A DNA stretch of 64,000 nt from Bacteroidales bacterium (GCA_963667975.1 OY764079.1:1428586-1492585), one strand, 5' to 3'; positions 1,431 through 18,689 are shown, counted from the stretch's first letter. Numbers and translations: made by a program. Notes: generated by a model not told the origin, from the sequence alone.

Positions 1431-2534
1431 TTATTTCTTTTTTTGTTGTGCTAATTTTAGAATTTCCCATGCAATATCGTTGGATGCATTGGGCTTTGCA
1501 AGTTTGGATATGTTTTTCCCAAAGCGATAACGCTGGCCTTCATCTTTAAAGAGATTTACCACGAGAGTTCCAAGTTTCTCAACAGCTTCGTTGTCGCGAA
1601 TTAGCATTGCAGCGTCTTTATTTACCAAAGCCATTGCGTTTTTGGTTTGATGATCTTCCGCAACATTTGGCGAAGGAATTAGAATAGCTGGTTTCCCGAT
1701 TAAGCAAAGTTCCGAAATAGCGATTGCACCTGCTCTGGAAACAATCATATCTGACACCTTGTAAAACTCATTCATTGCAGAAATAAAACTAAACGCTTTT
1801 ACACAGTGAAGATTATGTTGCCTGATAATCTGGTTTGCTTCGTCAATATAAAGTTTTCCGGTTTGCCATAACACCTGAATTCCGTGTTCGGCAAAGAGTT
1901 GTACTGAAGCAGCAATGCTATGGTTAATTGTGCGGGCACCAAGACTTCCTCCAACAACCAGTAAAACAGGTTTGCCAGAATCAAGTCCCAATTCCTGCAA
2001 AATTTCATTCCGATCTTTATCACATTGTGTGATAGATTGTCGTACAGGATTTCCAGTGAAAACTATTTTTGAAGGATTAAAAAATTTCTCCATTCCTTCG
2101 TACGCCACACATATTTTTTCCGCTCTGCGAGCCAGAACTTTATTGGTTATGCCGGGATATGAATTTTGCTCCTGAATTACACAGGGTACTTTTGAAAATG
2201 CTGAAACCCGCAAGGTAGGACCACTCGCGTAGCCTCCCACTCCAATTGCTACATCGGGTTTGAATGATTTCACAATTTGCAAAGCTTTAAGCAAACTTCC
2301 GACAACTTTGAATGGGAAACTGATGTTTTTATACGTAAGGCGACGTTGTAATCCGCTAATCCAAAGTCCTTCAATTTTATAGCCGGCTTCAGGTACCTTT
2401 TCCATTTCCATACGGCCTTTTGCACCGATAAAAAGGATCTCGGCTTCTTTGTCGAGGTCACATAGTGCATTTGCAATTGCAATAGCCGGGAATATATGAC
2501 CTCCGGTTCCACCACCACTTATGATATACCTCAT
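1431..2534 (-). CDS. murG: UDP-GlcNAc:lipid I N-acetylglucosaminyltransferase
   Basis: 367-aa ORF with the SGGGTGGHIFPAIAIANAL motif typical of MurG (GT28). dcw synteny supports the call. Confidence 0.95.
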   Translation of the reverse strand: MRYIISGGGTGGHIFPAIAIANALCDLDKEAEILFIGAKGRMEMEKVPEAGYKIEGLWISGLQRRLTYKNISFPFKVVGSLLKALQIVKSFKPDVAIGVGGYASGPTLRVSAFSKVPCVIQEQNSYPGITNKVLARRAEKICVAYEGMEKFFNPSKIVFTGNPVRQSITQCDKDRNEILQELGLDSGKPVLLVVGGSLGARTINHSIAASVQLFAEHGIQVLWQTGKLYIDEANQIIRQHNLHCVKAFSFISAMNEFYKVSDMIVSRAGAIAISELCLIGKPAILIPSPNVAEDHQTKNAMALVNKDAAMLIRDNEAVEKLGTLVVNLFKDEGQRYRFGKNISKLAKPNASNDIAWEILKLAQQKKK

Positions 2535-3742
2535 ACTTTACCTCCTTCCGGAACGGGTTCAGGCATTAGTGTATTTTTCCCTTCTGAAATTTCTGTTTCA
2601 GCTTTTTTTTCTTTTTCTCGTTCTATTTCAGCACTCACGCTGAGGATGATTCCGATTCCGATGCTGGTAAACCAAAGCGAAGTTCCGCCCATACTTATCA
2701 TGGGTAAAGGTTGCCCGGTTACGGGTAACAGATCGACGGCAACAAGCATGTTTATAAGCGCTTGTAATACAAGAATAAATCCAATTCCAATTGCCAGAAA
2801 TGCTCCAAATGTGCCTGGACTTCCGCGTACAATTTTCATACATCGGTAAAACAAAATAAGATATAGCAAAAGAATAAAAATGCCTCCGATTAATCCATAT
2901 TCTTCAATAATAATTGCATAGATGAAGTCGGAATAGGGGTGAGGCAAATAGTTTCGCTGATTGCTGTTCCCCGGAAGCTTGCCAAATATTTTTCCACTTG
3001 CAATTGCAATTTTGGATTGTTCCATTTGGTAGTCCCCATCGGGACTATTGTCAATGCCAACAAAAGATTCGATACGATTTTGCCATGTTCCGAAACGACC
3101 AACATTCGGATATTGATATATTAAAATAATAAAAAATGTTCCCAGAACAATCCCGACGCCTATCAGTGAAAGCATATACCTCCAGTTTATTCGCCCAATG
3201 AACATCATGATGAAACATGCTAAGAATAATATGGCAGAGGTTGAAAAGTTTGCCGGAAGAATTAACATGCAAACGCCTGCTACGGGTAATATTACCGGAA
3301 TAAAACCTTTTTTGAAATCATCAATATCTTCTTGATTACGAGCCAATACGCGGGCAACATACATCATCAGTGCCAGCTTGGCCAGGTCGGAAGTTTGAAA
3401 AGTAACATTGATTAACGGCAGTGTTAACCAACGGCTTGCCTCGTTAAGATTTGTACCGGTAAACAGTGTAAATACGAGTAGAGGCAATGTGAGAAAAAGT
3501 GCTATTTGAGAAATGCGCGAGTAATAAGTGTACTTTAACTGATGTGTAAAAAACATCAGTCCAAGACCAATAATTAATATCAGAAAATGCTTAATCAGAT
3601 AATATTCGGTATTACCAGCTTGGTATTTGTATGCCAAAGTTCCTGTTGAACTGTACACAGCCAAAATGGAAAAAATGGAGAAAACAAACACAATAAACCA
3701 GATAACCCGGTCGCCTTTCAGATATTTAAACAGCGCATTCAT
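2531..3742 (-). CDS. ftsW: FtsW/RodA/SpoVE (SEDS) family cell-division protein
   Basis: 403-aa polytopic membrane ORF between murD and murG, overlapping murG by 4 nt. Confidence 0.9.
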   Translation of the reverse strand: MNALFKYLKGDRVIWFIVFVFSIFSILAVYSSTGTLAYKYQAGNTEYYLIKHFLILIIGLGLMFFTHQLKYTYYSRISQIALFLTLPLLVFTLFTGTNLNEASRWLTLPLINVTFQTSDLAKLALMMYVARVLARNQEDIDDFKKGFIPVILPVAGVCMLILPANFSTSAILFLACFIMMFIGRINWRYMLSLIGVGIVLGTFFIILIYQYPNVGRFGTWQNRIESFVGIDNSPDGDYQMEQSKIAIASGKIFGKLPGNSNQRNYLPHPYSDFIYAIIIEEYGLIGGIFILLLYLILFYRCMKIVRGSPGTFGAFLAIGIGFILVLQALINMLVAVDLLPVTGQPLPMISMGGTSLWFTSIGIGIILSVSAEIEREKEKKAETEISEGKNTLMPEPVPEGGKV

Positions 3743-10769: not shown

Positions 10770-11665
10770 TTAACGTTTTTCTACAATTCGTAATTTGGCA
10801 CTTCTCGAACGTGGATTCCGTTCAAGTTCTTTTGTTCCGGCAACAATAGGTTTGCGGTTTACAACAGTAAACGGGCTTTCAATATTGCCAAAAAAGTCTT
10901 GTTTTACTTCTCCTTCAAAGTTCCCGGTTTTAAAGAAATTTTTTACGAGCCGGTCTTCAAGGGAATGATAGGACATTACAACAAATCTGCCTCCTGGCTT
11001 CAATGCTTCGAGCCCCTGAATGAGCATTTCCTGTAAAACTTCCAGTTCTTCATTTACTTCAATGCGCAAAGCCTGAAAAATCATGGCAAGCGTTTTTTGC
11101 TCACGGCCTCTGGGAAGCAGATGTTGAATTGCTGCTTTTAAATCATTGGTAGTTTTGATTTCACTATTATTACGTGAAGCACAAAGCGTTGAGGCCAGCT
11201 TTCCTGCATTAGGCAGTTCACCGTAAAGATGAAATATCTTGCGGAGATCGGCTTCTTCATATTGATTTACAATATCTGCTGCAGTCCGGGGATTGTTTAC
11301 ATTCATACGTAAATCCAGATCAGCATCAAAACGAGTAGAAAAACCACGTTCAGGCGTATCAATTTGATGCGATGAAATACCCAAATCAGCAAGAATTCCG
11401 TCAACAGGAAATTGATTGTGATATTTTAGGAAATTGTTGAGAAATCTGAAGTTGTGTTTTACAAAAATGAAATTTGGATCATCCGGAATATTATTTATTG
11501 CATCGTCGTCCTGATCAAACCAACCAGCTTTCCTGTAGTAAGATGTTTTAAAATTTCCCGGGAATGGCCTCCACCACCAAAGGTAACATCAACATAGCTT
11601 CCTTCAGGCTTAATGGCAAGCCCTTCGATACACTCTTGTAACAAAACCGGATCGTGATATATCAT
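10770..11665 (-). pseudogene. rsmH: 16S rRNA (cytosine1402-N4)-methyltransferase RsmH, interrupted by a 1-nt frameshift
   Basis: The ATG at 11665 gives [16 protein letters not shown]...[17 protein letters not shown]. The frame breaks at the A-run 11517-11519. The shifted frame continues FDQDDDAIN...DGILADLGISSHQIDTPERGF into the 204-aa ORF 10770..11384. Confidence 0.85.
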
Positions 11666-11681
11666 AACTTATTCCTCCGGT

Positions 11682-12152
11682 TTATTCGTTATAATTAAAA
11701 CCAATTTGCTCCATAACCTCCATGAGCATTTCCGGAGTAAGCGCTTCAGAAGAATGCTGTTGGTTAAATGTTTCCAAATCCCATATTTCAAGATTTCCGG
11801 CATTACTAATAAGTTTAATATCAGTATTTATGCCTGCATCTTTCTTTAAATCTATTGGGATTAAAAAGCGGTCGCTACTGTCGAGTTCTACAAATACGGC
11901 GGCAGAAAGAACACGTGAGATATTGCTTTGATTCTTATGCCAAAGATTTAATTTGTTGATACGGGAACTTTCTTTTTCCCACATATTCTTTGTGAAGATT
12001 TCCAGACATCCTTTTTCAAAGAAATGTTTACGAACGTAGAACCCATCGGATATTTCCGATAGTAATTGCTTTTTCAATGCAGATGGAAATTTGAATCTTC
12101 CATTGGCATCTACTTTACAACTTTCATTAGCAACTACATTCAACATTGGCAC
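11682..12152 (-). CDS. mraZ: division/cell-wall cluster transcriptional regulator MraZ
   Basis: 156-aa ORF with two SpoVT/AbrB-like repeats (VDANGRFKFPSAL and LDSSDRFLIPIDL). It is the first gene of the dcw cluster. Confidence 0.9.
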   Translation of the reverse strand: MPMLNVVANESCKVDANGRFKFPSALKKQLLSEISDGFYVRKHFFEKGCLEIFTKNMWEKESSRINKLNLWHKNQSNISRVLSAAVFVELDSSDRFLIPIDLKKDAGINTDIKLISNAGNLEIWDLETFNQQHSSEALTPEMLMEVMEQIGFNYNE

Positions 12153-12613
12153 TTGTTAAATTTTCAGGATGTAAAGGTAATGCAAAAAACTTATGAAACC
12201 CATTTTGTTGATAACTTTTGCCATATCTTGCCAGTTAATCCCATTTTTGCCCATTTTTGAAAAGCAACTTTACGATACTAAACTCTTCGGGTTTGTCGAT
12301 TTTTATTGAGGAATCTGAATTCTCTTTAAAAGATGCGGCTAATTGATGGGTAAAATATACTACATCTACTTATTAACAACGGATTCTCTTTTTTTTGGTT
12401 TTCTGAGTTTATCAAAGTGTAGTAATCAAAACGAAACTCGTTGCAAAAGTAAGCATACAAAATACAATTAACCCTCCGGAGTGGTCTTTTTAATCAAGCT
12501 GAAATAGAGAAATGATGTGAATTCTGAAATTTGAGATCTGTATTTCTGAGTGGAGGTTTTAAGACTAGCCAGTCACCTCTATATTCAGTTCGATAAAGTT
12601 AGGTGAATTAAAA

Positions 12614-12884
12614 GTGAATGTAGAGATTGCTGTTTTTATCTCATGCAGCAAAGATGATTCTTCAGACAACAATTCCGCAAATCAAAATAAGATTTGCAAT
12701 GGAGTAACGAGTAACAGCATTATACCTCTTAAACAGGGAGATGCATGGACTTGGACTACATTAGGTTTTGGAAGCATCATTGAAACTGTGGTTGGTAAAA
12801 AAACGATTAACGCTGTAGAGTATTTTGATGTTACGCACCTTGAAACAGCGTTTTCTCAAACAAATCATCATTATTACAGAGTTC
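12614..12884 (+). pseudogene. 5' fragment of a small lipoprotein-like gene disrupted by IS insertion
   Basis: The ORF has a lipobox-like AVFISCSKDD and reads ...QTNHHYYRV before entering IS sequence. It is in frame with the 3' fragment at 16250. The signal peptide is unusually short (GTG start). Confidence 0.6.
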
Positions 12885-12913
12885 TGACTAACGTCAAATT
12901 TTAGTATTAATAA

Positions 12914-14272
12914 TCAATTAGTTACAAATTCAAAGTTTTCTTTTGAAAGTTCAAATTTAGTAATTTGTTTTTGAATACGCTTCACTAATCCCAACTTTCT
13001 TTTTTGGTCGAGATATAAGTATTCTTTTGGATTATAATAAGGCTTGTTTTTGACGACCATATTCCAAATAATCACAGCTAATTTTCTTGCTGTGGCAGAA
13101 ATTGCAGAAACTCGTCCTTTGCGAAAATTTATTTTCTGGAAGAAATCTCTCAATGGGGTTGATTCTTTAAGATTCCCTATTGCATTTGCTGCATTACGCA
13201 AAGCTATCTTAAGTCGATTACTTCCTTTGGGAACTTTGCTCGAGAGAATTTTTCCACCCGAAATTTTATTGTTGGGTGCTAATCTGAGCCAGCTTGCAAA
13301 ATGTTTGGCTGTCGTGAATTGTTTAATTCCTTCTAATCCAACTTCACTCATAATTGATAGAACTGTCGAATAACTCATTCCTTCAATCGCCATCAAATCA
13401 ACACCTTCAAAATACTGATACGATTTCATGTTTAGGTCGATATTCTTTGGTGAGTTCTTATTGATTTTTTTATGTGGCTTTTTCTCGATGTGATGCTGCC
13501 TTTTATTGTCGTCATTTTCAATAATCTTGTCCAGCATTTTCTGAATTTCAATATCGCATTGCCCTATTTTTGTTTGAAACATCTGGTACATATCTAGTTC
13601 TTGTTTCAGGGCAAACAGATAGTCTTCCCGTCCGTTGCTATGAAGGGCTTTAGCTATTTCTTCTCTGGATTTTCGACAGTTGTAATGACGCAATTCGGAT
13701 AATTTCTCAGGATTTGTTTCTCCTTCGCATATCGCTTTTATTATGGCTAATCCGGTTTGTCCGACAATATCATTCACAACCACATCTAAACGCAAATTTA
13801 AAAGCCGCAAATATTTCTGCATTTTCTTGCATGCAGATGCCGACGAATCCAGTAAAAGTGCTCTTTGACGGCAATAGGTTCTTAATTGTTCGGTTTGTTT
13901 GTCGGGTAAAAAACTATTTGACAACAGACCTAAACTATGTAGCTTTTGTATCCACTGGCAGTCTTTTATGTCGGTCTTCTTTCCTTTTATGTTCTTGGTG
14001 AATTTACCATTGCACAATATCACTTCAATACCTTCCGACAATAATACTGCATACAATGATTGCCAATAAGTACCGGTGCTTTCTAATGCAACTGTTTTGA
14101 TTTTGTTCTCCTTAAACCATAATGCCATTCTTTTAAGGTCGTCATTGAATACGCCAAATTCTTGCACTTCATCGGATCTTTGCCCTACGGCTGCCCAGTG
14201 TGAACGACTGCCTATGTCGACTCCCGCCGCATTTGGGTTGACTACTTCCATACTAATCTCTTTTTGTTCCAT
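12914..14272 (-). CDS. IS110-family transposase/recombinase
   Basis: 452-aa ORF with N-terminal AAGVDIGSRSHWAAVG (DEDD RuvC-like domain) and a C-terminal Transposase_20-like region (IEGMSYSTVLSIMSEVG...FASWLRLAPNNKISGGK). Confidence 0.9.
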   Translation of the reverse strand: MEQKEISMEVVNPNAAGVDIGSRSHWAAVGQRSDEVQEFGVFNDDLKRMALWFKENKIKTVALESTGTYWQSLYAVLLSEGIEVILCNGKFTKNIKGKKTDIKDCQWIQKLHSLGLLSNSFLPDKQTEQLRTYCRQRALLLDSSASACKKMQKYLRLLNLRLDVVVNDIVGQTGLAIIKAICEGETNPEKLSELRHYNCRKSREEIAKALHSNGREDYLFALKQELDMYQMFQTKIGQCDIEIQKMLDKIIENDDNKRQHHIEKKPHKKINKNSPKNIDLNMKSYQYFEGVDLMAIEGMSYSTVLSIMSEVGLEGIKQFTTAKHFASWLRLAPNNKISGGKILSSKVPKGSNRLKIALRNAANAIGNLKESTPLRDFFQKINFRKGRVSAISATARKLAVIIWNMVVKNKPYYNPKEYLYLDQKRKLGLVKRIQKQITKFELSKENFEFVTN

Positions 14273-14532
14273 CGTCCTAATTGTTTAAAAATTAACTCAA
14301 TGGAGACGTGCTTTTGGCATGTTGAATTATTCTGATCGGGGTTCCCGAAGTTTCGGGACCGCCACTTTTGTCATCGCATACATCTCAACCAGGATTGCGC
14401 TCGTACTCATGAGTAACAGTTCTAAAATCGGCCTTGCATTGAGCTGTTCTTTCATACGTGTTCCTGACGATTTCGTTAGCTTGATTTGTTAATCTCTTTT
14501 GGTATAGGTAGGATTGCTGCCAACGGCAGTTC
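14273..14532 (-). ncRNA. candidate IS110 bridge/seek RNA encoded in the 5' non-coding end
   Basis: This is a 260-nt non-coding leader upstream of the recombinase. It contains hairpins at 14340-14360 and 14517-14529 and a palindrome TACTCATGAGTA. Three GTTC-containing motifs resemble the target junction and the element end. Confidence 0.45.
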
Positions 14533-16249
14533 GTCTAAAAACCTCCGCTTAGTGCAATTTTTTGCTCAAATTTAAGCCGTTTTAAGGGGATTTCAAAAAT
14601 ATATCTGGAATACTTTTGGTAAAAAAATTGTTTGCTATATTTGAGCTTTTGAAGGGATATAAAGTTGAATAACTGAACAAAACGTAAAACCAGTATCCTT
14701 AGATATTTCTTGAGCATTTCTGTATCAAGAATATTCATTAGTCGACGTAAATTGTACGCAATAAACATAAATCCAACATCGGAACTTGCCCTGTCTTTGC
14801 CTTTCTTTGTTAGAATATAACTAAATCCCCATTGCCTCTTTATCGTTCCGTAAGGATGCTCTACTATTGACTGTCGTTTTTTGTATAAATCCTTATTGTT
14901 CTCAATATTTATTTTGTTGTTTTCTATGTATTTAGCAAATTCACTGCGTTCAAGTACACGCCCATTTCCTCGTATGTTCTTTGTACAAAGACTTAATTTT
15001 GAGCAAATCTTGCATGCTGAAGTCTTGTATTGTTGAACCTTGATATTTGCCCGATATCTTCCCCTGCTTTTGGCGTACCAAGAGCCATTGGTGCTCAAGA
15101 TGCTCCCTTCAGGACATGTATAGGTATTGGCTTGTTCGTTATACGTAAAATTAGCAATATTATATTGGCTATCTGGGGCATTCGATGCTACATTTGGTAC
15201 TGCTACCAGTGCTGTGATGTCTAATTCATGGGCAATTTTCATTTCCGAACCAGTGTGATAGCCTTTGTCGTAAAGTGCCGTAAAGTCATTTGTGCGTAAA
15301 ATGGATTTTGCTCTACGGAGCATCTCGCCCATAGCTTTGCTGTCATTATTGTTGGTTACCTTGTAGTCTATTGGTAAATAGTGATTTGCATCAACCGTGG
15401 TTTGAATATTATAAGCTACTTCGGTTATATTGTTTCGAGTAATCATTTGACGGCTTTCCGGGTCGGATGTTGAAACCTGGGCTTGCCCTGTTTCGCTAAT
15501 TTGTTTTTCGATGGCTTTGTATCCTTGTTTTCGTTGATTTTGTTTGTTGATTTCATTTTCAATTTCTGCTTTTTGATCACCATCGGCAGTAGAAAGCATA
15601 TTGCTATATTCCTCAATTTTATTCTCGATATAGGCTACATGGCGGTCGATTTTATCTTGATTGTAATTGTTTTTTTTGCTGTTTTGTGCTCTGAGTTTGG
15701 TACTGTCGCCAGCAATCAAAGTACCTCCAATCAAATCAAAATGTTGTGCTATTTTAACGGTAGATCTAAACACGTTTTTTATGGCTTTGGGATTGTTTTT
15801 ACGGAAGTTTGATATCGTATTATGGTCGGGTTGCAAGCCTTTTAGTAACCAAATAACTTCGATATTTCGTTTACATTCCTTTTCTAAATCACGAGATGAA
15901 CGTATTTTATTCAAATATCCATAAATGAATAGCTTAAGTAAATCTGCCGGATGGTATGCTGGACGACCATTGTCAACAAATTCCATGTCGAAACCAAATT
16001 CCTCCGGCTTTATACTATCTACAAAAAGGTCAATAGTACGGACTTCATTATCCTTTTCGATGGTTTCGTCCAAACAACGAGTGTTAATCTCTACCTGATG
16101 TCTGTTTATGCCATTTATAAACTTCATAAAAAAATACTGGTTTAATTATATAGCAAATATAATGAAAATCAGATAATTAAATCAAGTACAAATTATAAAT
16201 TATTAACAATCAGAATGTTGATAAAATCAGGCAATGGCGGTTTTTAGAC
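14533..16249 (-). mobile_element. IS1182-family insertion sequence (about 1.72 kb)
   Basis: Terminal inverted repeats are GTCTAAAAACCTCC (14533-) and GGCGGTTTTTAGAC (-16249), with 11 perfect bp and 14 of 16 overall. They flank a single transposase ORF. Confidence 0.85.
14535..16127 (-). CDS. IS1182-family DDE transposase
   Basis: 530-aa ORF. The N-terminal InsH/DUF772-like region reads GRPAYHPADLLKLFIYGYLNKIRSSRDLEKECKRNIEVIWLL, followed by a C-terminal DDE domain. The stop codon lies inside the left IR. Confidence 0.9.
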   Translation of the reverse strand: MKFINGINRHQVEINTRCLDETIEKDNEVRTIDLFVDSIKPEEFGFDMEFVDNGRPAYHPADLLKLFIYGYLNKIRSSRDLEKECKRNIEVIWLLKGLQPDHNTISNFRKNNPKAIKNVFRSTVKIAQHFDLIGGTLIAGDSTKLRAQNSKKNNYNQDKIDRHVAYIENKIEEYSNMLSTADGDQKAEIENEINKQNQRKQGYKAIEKQISETGQAQVSTSDPESRQMITRNNITEVAYNIQTTVDANHYLPIDYKVTNNNDSKAMGEMLRRAKSILRTNDFTALYDKGYHTGSEMKIAHELDITALVAVPNVASNAPDSQYNIANFTYNEQANTYTCPEGSILSTNGSWYAKSRGRYRANIKVQQYKTSACKICSKLSLCTKNIRGNGRVLERSEFAKYIENNKINIENNKDLYKKRQSIVEHPYGTIKRQWGFSYILTKKGKDRASSDVGFMFIAYNLRRLMNILDTEMLKKYLRILVLRFVQLFNFISLQKLKYSKQFFYQKYSRYIFEIPLKRLKFEQKIALSGGF

Positions 16250-16563
16250 AGTCTGACGGAGGTGTCTATCAGAATTTTTCGGAAAATCAAACAAATGAAT
16301 ATTTGTTAATCCCTGTTAATCCAACAGTTGGCCAAAACTGGCAGATTCAGGGGGCTATTTACATGGATAAAAGAACGGTAAAAAGTCTTACAGCAACGGT
16401 AAAAACGTCAAAATGTACATATTCAAATTGCATTGTAATTGACGAATCAAATACAAGCAACGGTTCGGTTATTTCAACTTTATATTATAAAAAGGGTATT
16501 GGATTGGTTAAGTCAACAAGTACTTATATTAATGAAGAGTTGAAGGAAGTAACTTTGAATTAA
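16250..16563 (+). pseudogene. 3' fragment of the IS-disrupted lipoprotein-like gene
   Basis: The frame continues (Q)SDGGVYQNFSENQ... The ATG at 16234 in the ORF track lies inside the IS1182 inverted repeat and is an artefact. Confidence 0.6.
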
Positions 16564-16587
16564 TAGAATCGATAACAGAGTGAAAAT

Positions 16588-16628
16588 GGGGTATGTAAAG
16601 GAAAAACTACATATCCCTTGTTTTTTTT
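16588..16628 (+). terminator. intrinsic terminator after the disrupted gene
   Basis: A 10-bp stem (GGGGTATGTA / TACATATCCC, one G-U pair) is followed by TTGTTTTTTTT. Confidence 0.6.
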
Positions 16629-16665
16629 CAATAAGTTTTTCTTTCAGCGATTATTCATTTTTACC

Positions 16666-16673
16666 TACTTTTG
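16666..16673 (+). promoter_or_regulatory. candidate Bacteroidota -7 promoter box
   Basis: TACTTTTG matches the established Bacteroides -7 consensus TAnnTTTG and lies 37 nt upstream of the gatE-like ATG. Confidence 0.35.
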
Positions 16674-16709
16674 TCAGGTATCCACTTAATCTCATAAATT
16701 TAATTCTAC

Positions 16710-18689
16710 ATGAACCAACCCTTTGATCCCCGAAAGAATTACGAAGAAACCAAAAAATCAATAGGTTATGTAGTTCGAAAACAGGCAAAACAACAGGATT
16801 ATGATCGTATTGGATTCAAGTCCGGTCTTGAAGTTCATCAACAATTGCTCACGAAAGAAAAACTTTTTTGTCGCTGTCCGGCTGGTGTCTATCAGCATCA
16901 TGATGATTTTGATGCTGAAATTATTCGCCACATGCGTCCGACCCTGAGTGAATTAGGTGAGTATGATGGTACAGCTCTGATGGAGTTTAAAACCAAAAAG
17001 GAAATAACCTATCGCCTGAAAAACCGTACTTCCTGTACCTATGAAGTGGATGATACTCCTCCTTTTCCAATCAACCGTGAAGCATTGCAAATTGCGATTG
17101 AAATTTCGCTTCTTTCTAAGCTTAACATTGTAGGAGAAGTACATATTACTCGTAAACAGTATCTGGATGGAAGTATTCCTGCTGGTTTTCAGCGTACAGC
17201 GATTATTGGAGTGGAAGGTGAAATTCAGTTAAAAAATAAAAAGGTACGCCTGATTCAACTTAGTATTGAAGAGGATTCCTGTCGTGAAATTTCCGATATT
17301 GGACACAAACGTATTTATAAGACTGATCGTTTGGGAATGCCTTTGATTGAAACGGTAACTTATCCGGAAATGCTGAATCCAGATGAAGTGAAGGAAGCTT
17401 GTGATTATATTCGCTTTCTGAACAGAAGTACCAATAAAGTCCGTACCGGAATTGGGGCTGGACGACAGGATGTTAATGTTAGCTGTAAAGGTGGTCATCG
17501 TGTTGAAATTAAAGGAGTTGCCCATACAAAATGGATTCCTGAACTTACTCATAATGAATGTTTTCGTCAATGGGCTCTTTTAAATATTCGCAATCTTCTT
17601 TTGAAACAAATCAAAGATGTGAAGAGTTGGACAATTGTTCCGAAAGAGCTTGATTATAAAAAACTTAAATTTCCTTGCGATAGCATAAAAGTCGCTCGTG
17701 AAAACCATGATAAACTTTACGTGGTAAATCTGCCGGGTTTTAAAGGAATCTTATCTCATTTTACCCAACTTGGACAGATGTTTGCAAATGAAATCAGCGA
17801 TCGTTTAAAAGTAATTGCCTGTATTGAGAAACCCAATATGGTTCATTCAGAAGAACTGGATGCTCGTATTTCGGCTGATGATTTGGCAATTATTTGTAAG
17901 CTGGTTAATGCAGAAGAAAATGACGCTCAGATTTTGTTTTGGGGACCCAGAGAGGATATTAAAACCGCATTAGATGTTATTGAAGAACGTTGTAAAATGG
18001 CTTTTGAAGGCGTTCCTCCAGAAACACGTAAATCTTTTGCTGACGGATCTACCATTTTTGAACGTGTACTCCCGGGTGCTGACCGTATGTATCCAGATAC
18101 TGATAGCAAACCCATTCCATTAGCTGATTCTTACATCGAAGAGCTCAGAAAACAGATACCAGAGGAGGTTGTTTATCGCTATCGTCAGTTGCAGGAATGG
18201 AATGTCCCTGAGGATTCCTATTCATTTATACTGAGTAAAAATCTTTATCCTCTCATTGAGAAACTGGTGAATGAACTAACGATGAATCCTGTTTTTGCAG
18301 GAACATTTATAGGCCATACTTACAAACATGTATTGGGACATTACAAAATTGCCGATACGTTTACAAGCGAACATATTTTTGATCTCTTCCAGTATTTGTT
18401 GAAAAATGATCTGGATTTGGCATTAGCTCGCAAAATGATGCCAATAGTTCTGGAACATCCTAAAATGGATTTTGACTCAGTGCTTACGAGCATTAAGTTT
18501 AGACGAACTTCTGCTGGTGAAATCATTTCAAATATTCCTTTCCTGAAAGACAAATTCAGCAAGATACGTCGTGATGCTAGCAAAACAGACCAGATCAACT
18601 GGATTATGGGAGAACTTCAACAACAGGCATTAGGAAACATGCCGTTGGTTGAACTTTATAATAATGTATGTAAGATTATTGAAGAATAA
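16710..18689 (+). CDS. gatE: archaeal-type Glu-tRNA(Gln) amidotransferase subunit E homolog (GatB/GatE family)
   Basis: 659-aa ORF that I judge from memory of GatE motifs to be GatE-like along its length. Motifs include GLEVHQQL..KLFCRC, RPTLSELGEYD, DDTPPFPIN, GFQRT, LSIEEDS, DRLGMPLIE, GAGRQDVNVS, VEIKGV and GVPPETRK. It also has a YqeY-like tail. Confidence 0.8.
   Translation: MNQPFDPRKNYEETKKSIGYVVRKQAKQQDYDRIGFKSGLEVHQQLLTKEKLFCRCPAGVYQHHDDFDAEIIRHMRPTLSELGEYDGTALMEFKTKKEITYRLKNRTSCTYEVDDTPPFPINREALQIAIEISLLSKLNIVGEVHITRKQYLDGSIPAGFQRTAIIGVEGEIQLKNKKVRLIQLSIEEDSCREISDIGHKRIYKTDRLGMPLIETVTYPEMLNPDEVKEACDYIRFLNRSTNKVRTGIGAGRQDVNVSCKGGHRVEIKGVAHTKWIPELTHNECFRQWALLNIRNLLLKQIKDVKSWTIVPKELDYKKLKFPCDSIKVARENHDKLYVVNLPGFKGILSHFTQLGQMFANEISDRLKVIACIEKPNMVHSEELDARISADDLAIICKLVNAEENDAQILFWGPREDIKTALDVIEERCKMAFEGVPPETRKSFADGSTIFERVLPGADRMYPDTDSKPIPLADSYIEELRKQIPEEVVYRYRQLQEWNVPEDSYSFILSKNLYPLIEKLVNELTMNPVFAGTFIGHTYKHVLGHYKIADTFTSEHIFDLFQYLLKNDLDLALARKMMPIVLEHPKMDFDSVLTSIKFRRTSAGEIISNIPFLKDKFSKIRRDASKTDQINWIMGELQQQALGNMPLVELYNNVCKIIEE

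Follow-up and report, generated by a model that had tools for sequence, protein, structure and literature searches.

The window, a 64,000-nt stretch of a Bacteroidales bacterium genome (GCA_963667975.1 OY764079.1:1428586-1492585), carries an IS110-family element on its minus strand (Table 1). The protein encoded by its transposase/recombinase gene matched the Pfam domains DEDD_Tnp_IS110 (PF01548, 70.3 bits) and Transposase_20 (PF02371, 42.7 bits) as well as the NCBIfam equivalog NF033542, "IS110 family RNA-guided transposase" (211.7 bits, cutoff 140), thereby exceeding the curated cutoffs for IS110-family membership. A phmmer comparison of the transposase with the PDB sequences returned no match to any solved structure, indicating that IS621 is too distant. 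The next gene upstream, in the same orientation, is the transposase ORF of an IS1182-family element (14535-16127; NCBIfam NF033551, 319.8 bits). Its near limit in Table 1 was taken from the stop codon, and the terminus lies somewhere within 14519-14535. The far end at position 16259 (...CAGTCTGACGG) is where two genomic copies diverge (window 16236-16262, with L102); bases 16250-16259 belong to the IS1182-family element and not to a host gene.

To delimit the IS110-family element, we compared four genomic copies, which are 100% identical and whose flanks differ among themselves. In transposase orientation, the copies diverge directly to the left of TCCTACC... and directly to the right of ...ACGTTAGTCAGAA, and the same ends were aligned in 55 homolog insertions. 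The left end (LE) thus comprises 241 nt (14273-14513). A sequence-only reading of the same DNA had extended the leader to 260 nt, up to position 14532, which is 19 nt too far; the right end (RE), which it had put at 33 nt, measures 32 nt. The ends carry a 7-bp sub-terminal inverted repeat, ACGTTAG in RE and CTAACGT in LE, which is placed asymmetrically at 6 and 33 nt from the respective ends. The GCTAACG of LE is invariant in 41 homologs (columns G34-C39). A hairpin at LE positions 9-22 is weak, with 55% of the cells pairing and two consistent pairs.

In two related loci on 3.5-kb contigs (L048 and L049), RE is abutted directly to LE, so that the RE tip GTCAGAA is followed by the locus's own LE start, TTCCCCCTATACC. 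This would be the expected form of either a tandem copy or an assembled circle junction. RE carries TTGACG and LE carries TATACC (window 12870-12897 and 14501-14506), and an abutted RE-LE junction would place them 17 nt apart, resembling a sigma-70-like junction promoter whose relevance in Bacteroidota is only putative. Transcripts from this putative promoter would begin just before the LE-internal motif M described below.

Table 1. Features of the IS110-family element and its surroundings. Positions refer to the window.
Feature	Position	Strand	Remarks
IS110-family element	12882-14513	-	four 100%-identical copies with different flanks; 55 homolog insertions
RE, 32 nt, sense strand terminates ACGTTAGTCAGAA	12882-12913	-	tip conserved in 58 loci
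ACGTTAG, RE copy of the 7-bp sub-terminal inverted repeat	12888-12894	-	6 nt from the end
Transposase/recombinase gene, 452 aa	12914-14272	-	Pfam, NCBIfam
Conserved bridge-RNA core (predicted), LE positions 70-219, ~150 nt	14295-14444	-	covariation
G4 (AUCAGAAUA), 3' strand of loop 2	14328-14336	-	equals top strand of RE tip + AA + U
Apical stem-loop of loop 2	14337-14364	-	8/11 pairs compensatory
G3, 7-mer UGACAAA, 5' strand of loop 2 (14365-14379)	14367-14373	-	equals LE-internal motif M
P1 helix, 5' strand, partner 14303-14309	14380-14386	-	encloses loop 2
G2 (AGCGCAAUCC), 3' strand of loop 1	14392-14401	-	identical to top strand at left junction
Apical hairpin of loop 1	14402-14418	-	99.5% paired, 3 compensatory pairs
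G1 (AUUUUAGAAC), 5' strand of loop 1	14419-14428	-	complementary to right flank
P0 closing helix, 5' strand, partner 14295-14302	14437-14444	-	7/8 pairs changed on both sides
GCTAACG, LE copy of the 7-bp inverted repeat	14474-14480	-	33 nt from LE tip
M, DNA 7-mer, LE positions 23-29	14485-14491	-	equals G3 sequence
AA junction dinucleotide			one copy assigned to RE side; the other AA at 14514-14515
Left target flank, sense GACGAACUGCCGUUGGCAGCAA	14514-14535	-	outer part of IS1182-family terminal repeat
Neighbouring IS1182-family element	14535-16259	-	left-target source, outside the bridge system

A search for related sequences yielded 80 loci from Bacteroidota plus a few other bins. The sequences upstream of their genes gave a good alignment over the whole distance between LE tip and start codon, and the leader is kept in more than 40 homologous elements. 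For the structure test, we used an alignment of 41 homologous Bacteroidota elements and the fold proposed by RNAalifold, in which a closing helix carries two stem-loops, both of which contain a large internal loop. Helix P1 (GAGAUGU with ACAUCUC), which encloses the second stem-loop, was added. In the resulting structure of 38 pairs, 94.3% of the cells were paired, as compared to 27-46% after sliding of the 3' partners. Compensatory changes on both sides of a pair were found in 22 pairs and 158 cells, versus 41 cells in shuffles; P1 alone occurs as GAGAUG/CAUCUC, GGGAUG/CAUCCC, and GAAAUG/CAUUUC. Five pairs are invariant or nearly invariant G-U or U-G pairs, which would become A-C on the opposite strand, indicating that the RNA is read from the transposase sense strand. 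The structure rests on this covariation, as the single-sequence fold of the leader equals that of shuffles (z = 0.01). The argument from "stable hairpins" made in the sequence-only reading therefore carries no weight on its own. Of its two hairpins, GGTTCCCGAAGTTTCGGGACC at 14340-14360 is present and corresponds to the apical stem of loop 2, whereas CTGCCAACGGCAG at 14517-14529, although present as a sequence, lies outside the element in the flank formed by the IS1182-family inverted repeat. The palindrome TACTCATGAGTA at 14404-14415 was confirmed as part of the apical stem of loop 1.

An Rfam 15 scan of positions 11000-18000 (E <= 10) gave no match in the leader and one chance snoRNA match elsewhere. 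A covariance model built from the core (R1) found five matches in the genome, all of them upstream of IS110 genes. Four are the identical copies, and the fifth, scoring 150 bits, belongs to a 69%-identical IS110 element outside the model, hereafter IS-B.

A Bacteroidota-type -7 box (relaxed TAnnTT[T/C][G/A]) is located within ~14 nt upstream of P0 in ~26 of the 41 homologs, ending 3-4 nt upstream of P0 in ~20 of them, and P0 is followed by a U-tract. Together, the box of the relatives and the U-tract point to a transcript of 150-160 nt. The present element lacks the -7 box and has TATGAAAG where the relatives have TAnnTTTG. The likely promoter lies in an unconserved LE spacer, which also holds two of the three GTTC motifs that had been proposed as guides. 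Both sequences are present, GTTCCTGAC at 14460-14468 (LE positions 46-54) and GCTGTTCTTT one base away from its earlier position, at 14443-14452 (LE ~61-71), but, located as they are in unconserved spacer, they find no support as guides. We conclude that a predicted guide RNA of the bridge/seek type, ~150-160 nt in length and encoded upstream of the gene, is supported by the sequence comparisons. The central proposal of the sequence-only reading is thereby borne out, while the element end, the crossover core, and two of the three guide motifs had been misplaced.

Raw mutual information between the flanks and the RNA columns was dominated by poorly aligned columns and relatedness. In its place, we compared cognate with non-cognate RNA-DNA combinations and shifted the register of the comparison; the permutation tests ignore relatedness and multi-copy families. 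Four unpaired loop strands, G1 to G4, were found to track DNA located outside the RNA gene. The sequence-only reading had overlooked those matching the RE tip, the left junction, and the LE-internal 7-mer. The first of its three motifs, ACAGTTCTAAAAT at 14416-14428, proved to be a real guide: it falls into loop 1 of the covariation-based fold, where it forms G1 in the 5' strand.

G1 matched the right flank at 5.08 of 9 positions for cognate and 4.55 for non-cognate combinations, with the maximum at register 0. Divergent G1 guides have matching right flanks, over 8 nt in L092 and L025 and at 7/8 positions in L082 and L085. The ideal right flank for the present G1 would read TTCTAAAAT; one copy (L003) has TACTAAAA, a match of 7/8. 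G2, on the opposite strand of the same loop, comprises the last left-flank bases, the AA, and the first 3 nt of LE in the manner of a handshake-like extension. Its comparison with the left flank gave a sharp register maximum of 4.25/7, all other registers reaching 2.6 or less, and a cognate excess. Allowing a 1-nt DNA bulge, 3.02 versus 2.46 of 5 positions were matched, with a background that was also higher. In each of the 38 representatives, the base at LE position 2 is the same as that at RNA position 121 (identity 1.00, mutual information 0.98). The divergent cases agree as well: L018 has AUAGAUCC in both places, and the same correspondence holds for CACAA in the L065 family and for the CAUUC/AAUUC variants.

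In loop 2, G3 matches M at 6.44 of 7 positions in cognate and 4.18 in non-cognate combinations, among 15 distinct 7-mers, with an identity of 0.89-1.00 at five positions. A search throughout the element revealed no reverse-complement partner for G3/M. All variants of the RE tip are mirrored in the RNA at G4, namely TCAGAA, TTAGAA, TCGGAA, and TTGGAA, and, in IS-B, TTAGGA. IS-B follows its own DNA in each respect: its G4 (UUAGGA) equals its own RE tip, its G3 (UGAUUUU) its own M, and its handshake UUC its own LE tip, the left flank being AACGTTAAGGACAA. The base after G4 is U, and 28 of 52 sites have T as their first right-flank base. We also searched for a guide that would complement the LE tip and obtained only scattered, family-specific matches without a fixed position (for example, GGAGGAU in L020 and L027), for which reason it was dropped as a general feature.

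The two junctions share AA on the sense strand, and A occupies position -1 in 55 of 56 insertions; only this junction-proximal A is invariant. The motif CGTT is found at positions -12 to -9 of the left flank in 46 of the 56 insertions of the present and related elements, and the right flank is A-rich from +5 onward. Across the family, the target is CGTT-N6-(G)(C/T)AA with an A-rich flank on its right. CGTT occurs at the same distance, 9-12 nt left of the crossover, in RE, that is, in the donor. No segment matching CGTT was found in the RNA core, suggesting that the protein probably reads the motif. At natural sites, the variable guides find only partial matches, typically at 5/9 positions on the right and 4/7 on the left, so that the fixed CGTT and AA may hold much of the specificity. 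GCUAACG might be considered a further RNA guide, directed at the CGTTAG of the target. We do not favour this reading, as GCUAACG lies upstream of the likely transcription start and never varies, which leaves covariation without any bearing on such a role.

The left flanks of six loci (L016, L033, L037, L039, L040, and L050), which belong to different families and genomes, share GTAGCTTCCT(A/C)CGTTAG..GCAA, which suggests a conserved repeated target. In another locus (L086, ~344-390), a typical left-target sequence, AACGTTATATACAA, is fused to LE at M (CAA|TTTCG), and LE positions 1-27 are missing. This looks like the product of a recombination at an internal pseudo-site.

With a probability that we estimate at about 0.82, the region spanning LE positions 70-219 encodes a bridge RNA of ~150 nt for the element's DEDD recombinase. 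In the proposed mechanism, P0 stacked on P1 would carry the two stem-loops with their large internal loops, an arrangement drawn from the covariation-based fold. Loop 1 would read the target, with G2, which has the sequence of the last 4-6 nt of the left flank including AA, able to pair with the bottom strand and to continue into the first 3 nt of the element in the way of the IS621 handshake guide. Loop 2 would read the donor. Since G4 has the sequence of the RE tip, AA, and U, and G3 that of a 7-mer located 23-29 nt inside LE, loop 2 could hold both element ends. Crossover would take place at AA, and CGTT would probably be contacted by the protein. The fold and the relations between guides and DNA are seen in the alignments themselves; transcription, formation of an RNP, and recombination via an RE-LE abutted intermediate are proposed by analogy with IS621, ISEc21, and the IS1111-family systems.

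A bridge RNA has been predicted in 86% of the IS110-group elements (Durrant et al., 2024, PMC11208160), so that its occurrence in an IS110 leader is expected. Only the wiring goes beyond the known kinds. As in IS621, the RNA is encoded in a long LE upstream of the DEDD/Tnp recombinase gene, measures ~150-180 nt, and is composed of two covariation-supported stem-loops with internal loops, of which one matches the target and the other the donor. Guides for the left flank plus core (G2) and for the right flank (G1) are both found in the target loop, and a short crossover core is present at both junctions. In IS621, handshake nucleotides following the 3'-side guide match the other DNA (Hiraizumi et al., 2024, PMC11208158). 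The 3'-side guides of the present RNA likewise have a short handshake-like extension, which in G2 continues into LE positions 1-3. The strand order, however, is reversed. In IS621, the left side of the DNA is recognized on its bottom strand by the 5' strand of each loop, and the right side on its top strand by the 3' strand (PMC11208160). In the target loop of the present RNA, it is the 5' strand that would pair on the right, with the top strand, and the 3' strand that would pair on the left, with the bottom strand. An exact correspondence with the IS621 scheme is obtained for G1 and for G2 and G4, each with its extension, only when the DNA is mirrored.

G3 departs even from the mirrored model, which predicts complementarity to the first LE nucleotides. 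The RE guide of the donor loop is found as G4, but none was found to complement the LE tip; G3 instead corresponds to a site lying 22 nt deeper in LE (positions 23-29) and on the same strand as G4. In the simplest reading of these sequences, G3 is a displaced LE guide, and loop 2 would still hold both ends. Two more differences from IS621 are the CGTT fixed at -12 to -9 in both target and donor and the 452-aa protein, for which phmmer revealed no similarity to solved structures.

In IS1111-family seekRNAs, the complement of the top strand is located 5' of the match to the bottom strand, while ISEc21 and IS621 have the reverse order, with the bottom-strand match 5' of the top-strand match (Siddiquee et al., 2024, PMC11187229). 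The target matches of the present RNA follow the order of the IS1111-family seekRNAs (ISEc11, ISKpn4, ISPa11) and of IS4321 of R751. In the latter, AAAACGGAAA, which is complementary to the top strand to the right of the insertion point, precedes UAUUUUC, which is identical to the top strand across the insertion point. ISEc21, an element of the IS110 type with its target inside IS3-family transposase genes (PMC11187229), shares with the present element the upstream non-coding region, the guide RNA, and the insertion into another IS; its guide order is the opposite one, and the protein similarity amounts to just 33.5 bits.

These observations bear on classification. The element might be an offshoot of the IS1111 lineage, and not a member of the IS110 group, whose seekRNA gene has moved upstream; the RNA guidance would be the same, combined with an end recognition of the IS1111 type. 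In favour of this reading are the order in which the top-strand-pairing guide precedes the bottom-strand-pairing one, as in IS4321, and the presence of a 7-bp sub-terminal inverted repeat. Sub-terminal inverted repeats flanking the donor junction and a tendency to enter the ends of other mobile elements are shared with the IS1111 family; IS4321 enters the terminal repeats of the Tn21 family. Exceptions with upstream non-coding regions are, moreover, known among the relatives of IS1111. The repeat, however, differs from the 11-13 bp found at 3 nt (right) and 7 nt (left) in the IS1111 family, a canonical spacing that IS4321 shows. In addition, the RNA gene lies upstream and not downstream of the transposase gene, RE comprises 32 nt, and the 5' donor guide of IS4321 appears to be complementary to the LE tip, which the present one is not. 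BLASTP gave 41.6 bits against IS4321 and a slightly lower 33.5 bits against ISEc21, yet all of these pairwise scores, including that of ISEc21 against IS4321 (29.3 bits), are near noise level. The lineage thus seems to be about equally far from both. The sequence-only reading had named membership in the IS1111 group as something that would refute its proposal; what we found is a divided picture, with an upstream RNA as in the IS110 type and a guide order of the IS1111 type. All in all, we consider the IS1111 offshoot a possible but rather unlikely origin, and it would leave the RNA guidance itself unchanged.

It is much less probable that the leader serves as a cis-regulatory 5' UTR, acting as an attenuator or in translation control, or that it comprises protein-binding sites without guide function. 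Transposase expression could indeed be attenuated by the stem and U-tract that shortly precede the start codon, and the DNA motifs LE tip, M, and GCTAACG all lie ahead of the likely transcription start. But it is the loop strands, and not the stems alone, that covary with the RE tip, both flanks, and M, and neither a UTR nor a protein site gives a reason for covariation with outside DNA. Hardly tenable is the original version of the guide RNA, with a leader up to 14532, three GTTC-core guide motifs, and loops programmed for the IS1182 inverted repeat: although its first motif lies inside an internal loop, two copies sit beside an IS1182-family end, and GTTC is mildly over-represented in 14273-14532 (5 observed versus 1.5 expected, P about 0.014), the copies of GTTC are unconserved in homologs, the columns of motifs 2 and 3 are unconserved and fall outside the folded core, the element ends at 14513 with AA as the junction dinucleotide, the supposed GTTC at the junctions is a flanking G plus the element's TTC at 12881-12884 and lies 16-19 nt outside the element at 14529-14532, the proposed target AGAGTTC(GT)CTAAAAA was assembled from bases of both flank and element and involves a comparison of the wrong strands, and an IS1182 transposase gene is missing next to the other two copies and almost all homologs.

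Of the four copies, two have the left flank CCGTTGGCAGCAA, one has CCGTTATGGGCTA, and one has GTGTTAGAGGCAA. Two of the copies occupy the same site next to one IS1182-family copy each. Since the DNA bordering the two IS110/IS1182 pairs differs on both sides, two independent insertions are the more likely; another full-length IS1182-family copy, the third, carries no insertion. A homolog from another genome (L061) also sits at an IS1182-family terminus, where it abuts an IS1182-like gene. The claim of IS-end targeting is only partly supported. The remaining two copies are located at the termini of different repeats, which occur 5 and 22 times in the genome. In the latter case, the left flank is a ~140-nt repeat (L004, 1360-1500; G000:C1:1681620-1681764) preceding genes for an HTH_17 protein and a tyrosine recombinase (Phage_int_SAM_5, Arm-DNA-bind_5). 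The element lands in the ends of repeated DNA containing CGTT-N6-GCAA and not in IS1182 specifically.

Bridge and seek RNAs are under development as programmable recombinases, and the wiring types described are those of IS110/IS621 and IS1111. The present clade would mix both, combining an upstream RNA gene with a guide order of the IS1111 type, and would add an LE guide displaced onto the strand of the RE guide as well as a CGTT fixed in donor and target. We regard it as doubtful, albeit conceivable, that the Bacteroidota lineage represents a third wiring type, with an upstream RNA, mirrored polarity, donor guides that both read the bottom strand, a donor module bracketed by 7-bp repeats, and a PAM-like CGTT that the protein would read. 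Same-strand donor guides together with bracketing repeats would fit the recognition of a folded, single-stranded donor circle. If true at the bench, the wiring would bear on how donor ends are recognized, on PAM-like protein contacts as a limit to programmability, and on the evolutionary relation of the IS110 and IS1111 groups. The gains for genome annotation are of an ordinary kind: corrected element limits, a predicted 150-nt RNA gene, and recurrent insertion at the termini of other repeats, in two cases next to the end of an IS1182-family element.

This widespread Bacteroidota clade includes, on a Pontibacter plasmid, a homolog with 61% identity and, on plasmids of enterobacteria, relatives with ~38% identity. 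IS-B, the second IS110 element of the genome, is located on the minus strand of L005 (~1460-3090; G000:C1 ~10.3-11.9 kb) and has its own predicted bridge RNA. Its surroundings are dense with IS1182-like end fragments (L006, L010-L012, and L014). On the E. coli plasmid NZ_CP047278.1, the RNA model has a weak match over its full length (L096, 749-886; 14.8 bits, E = 0.046) just upstream of a gene for a 446-aa IS110-family transposase, which is 38% identical and common on enterobacterial plasmids. The match has a fragment of an IS3-family orfA on one side and an IS66 terminal repeat on the other.
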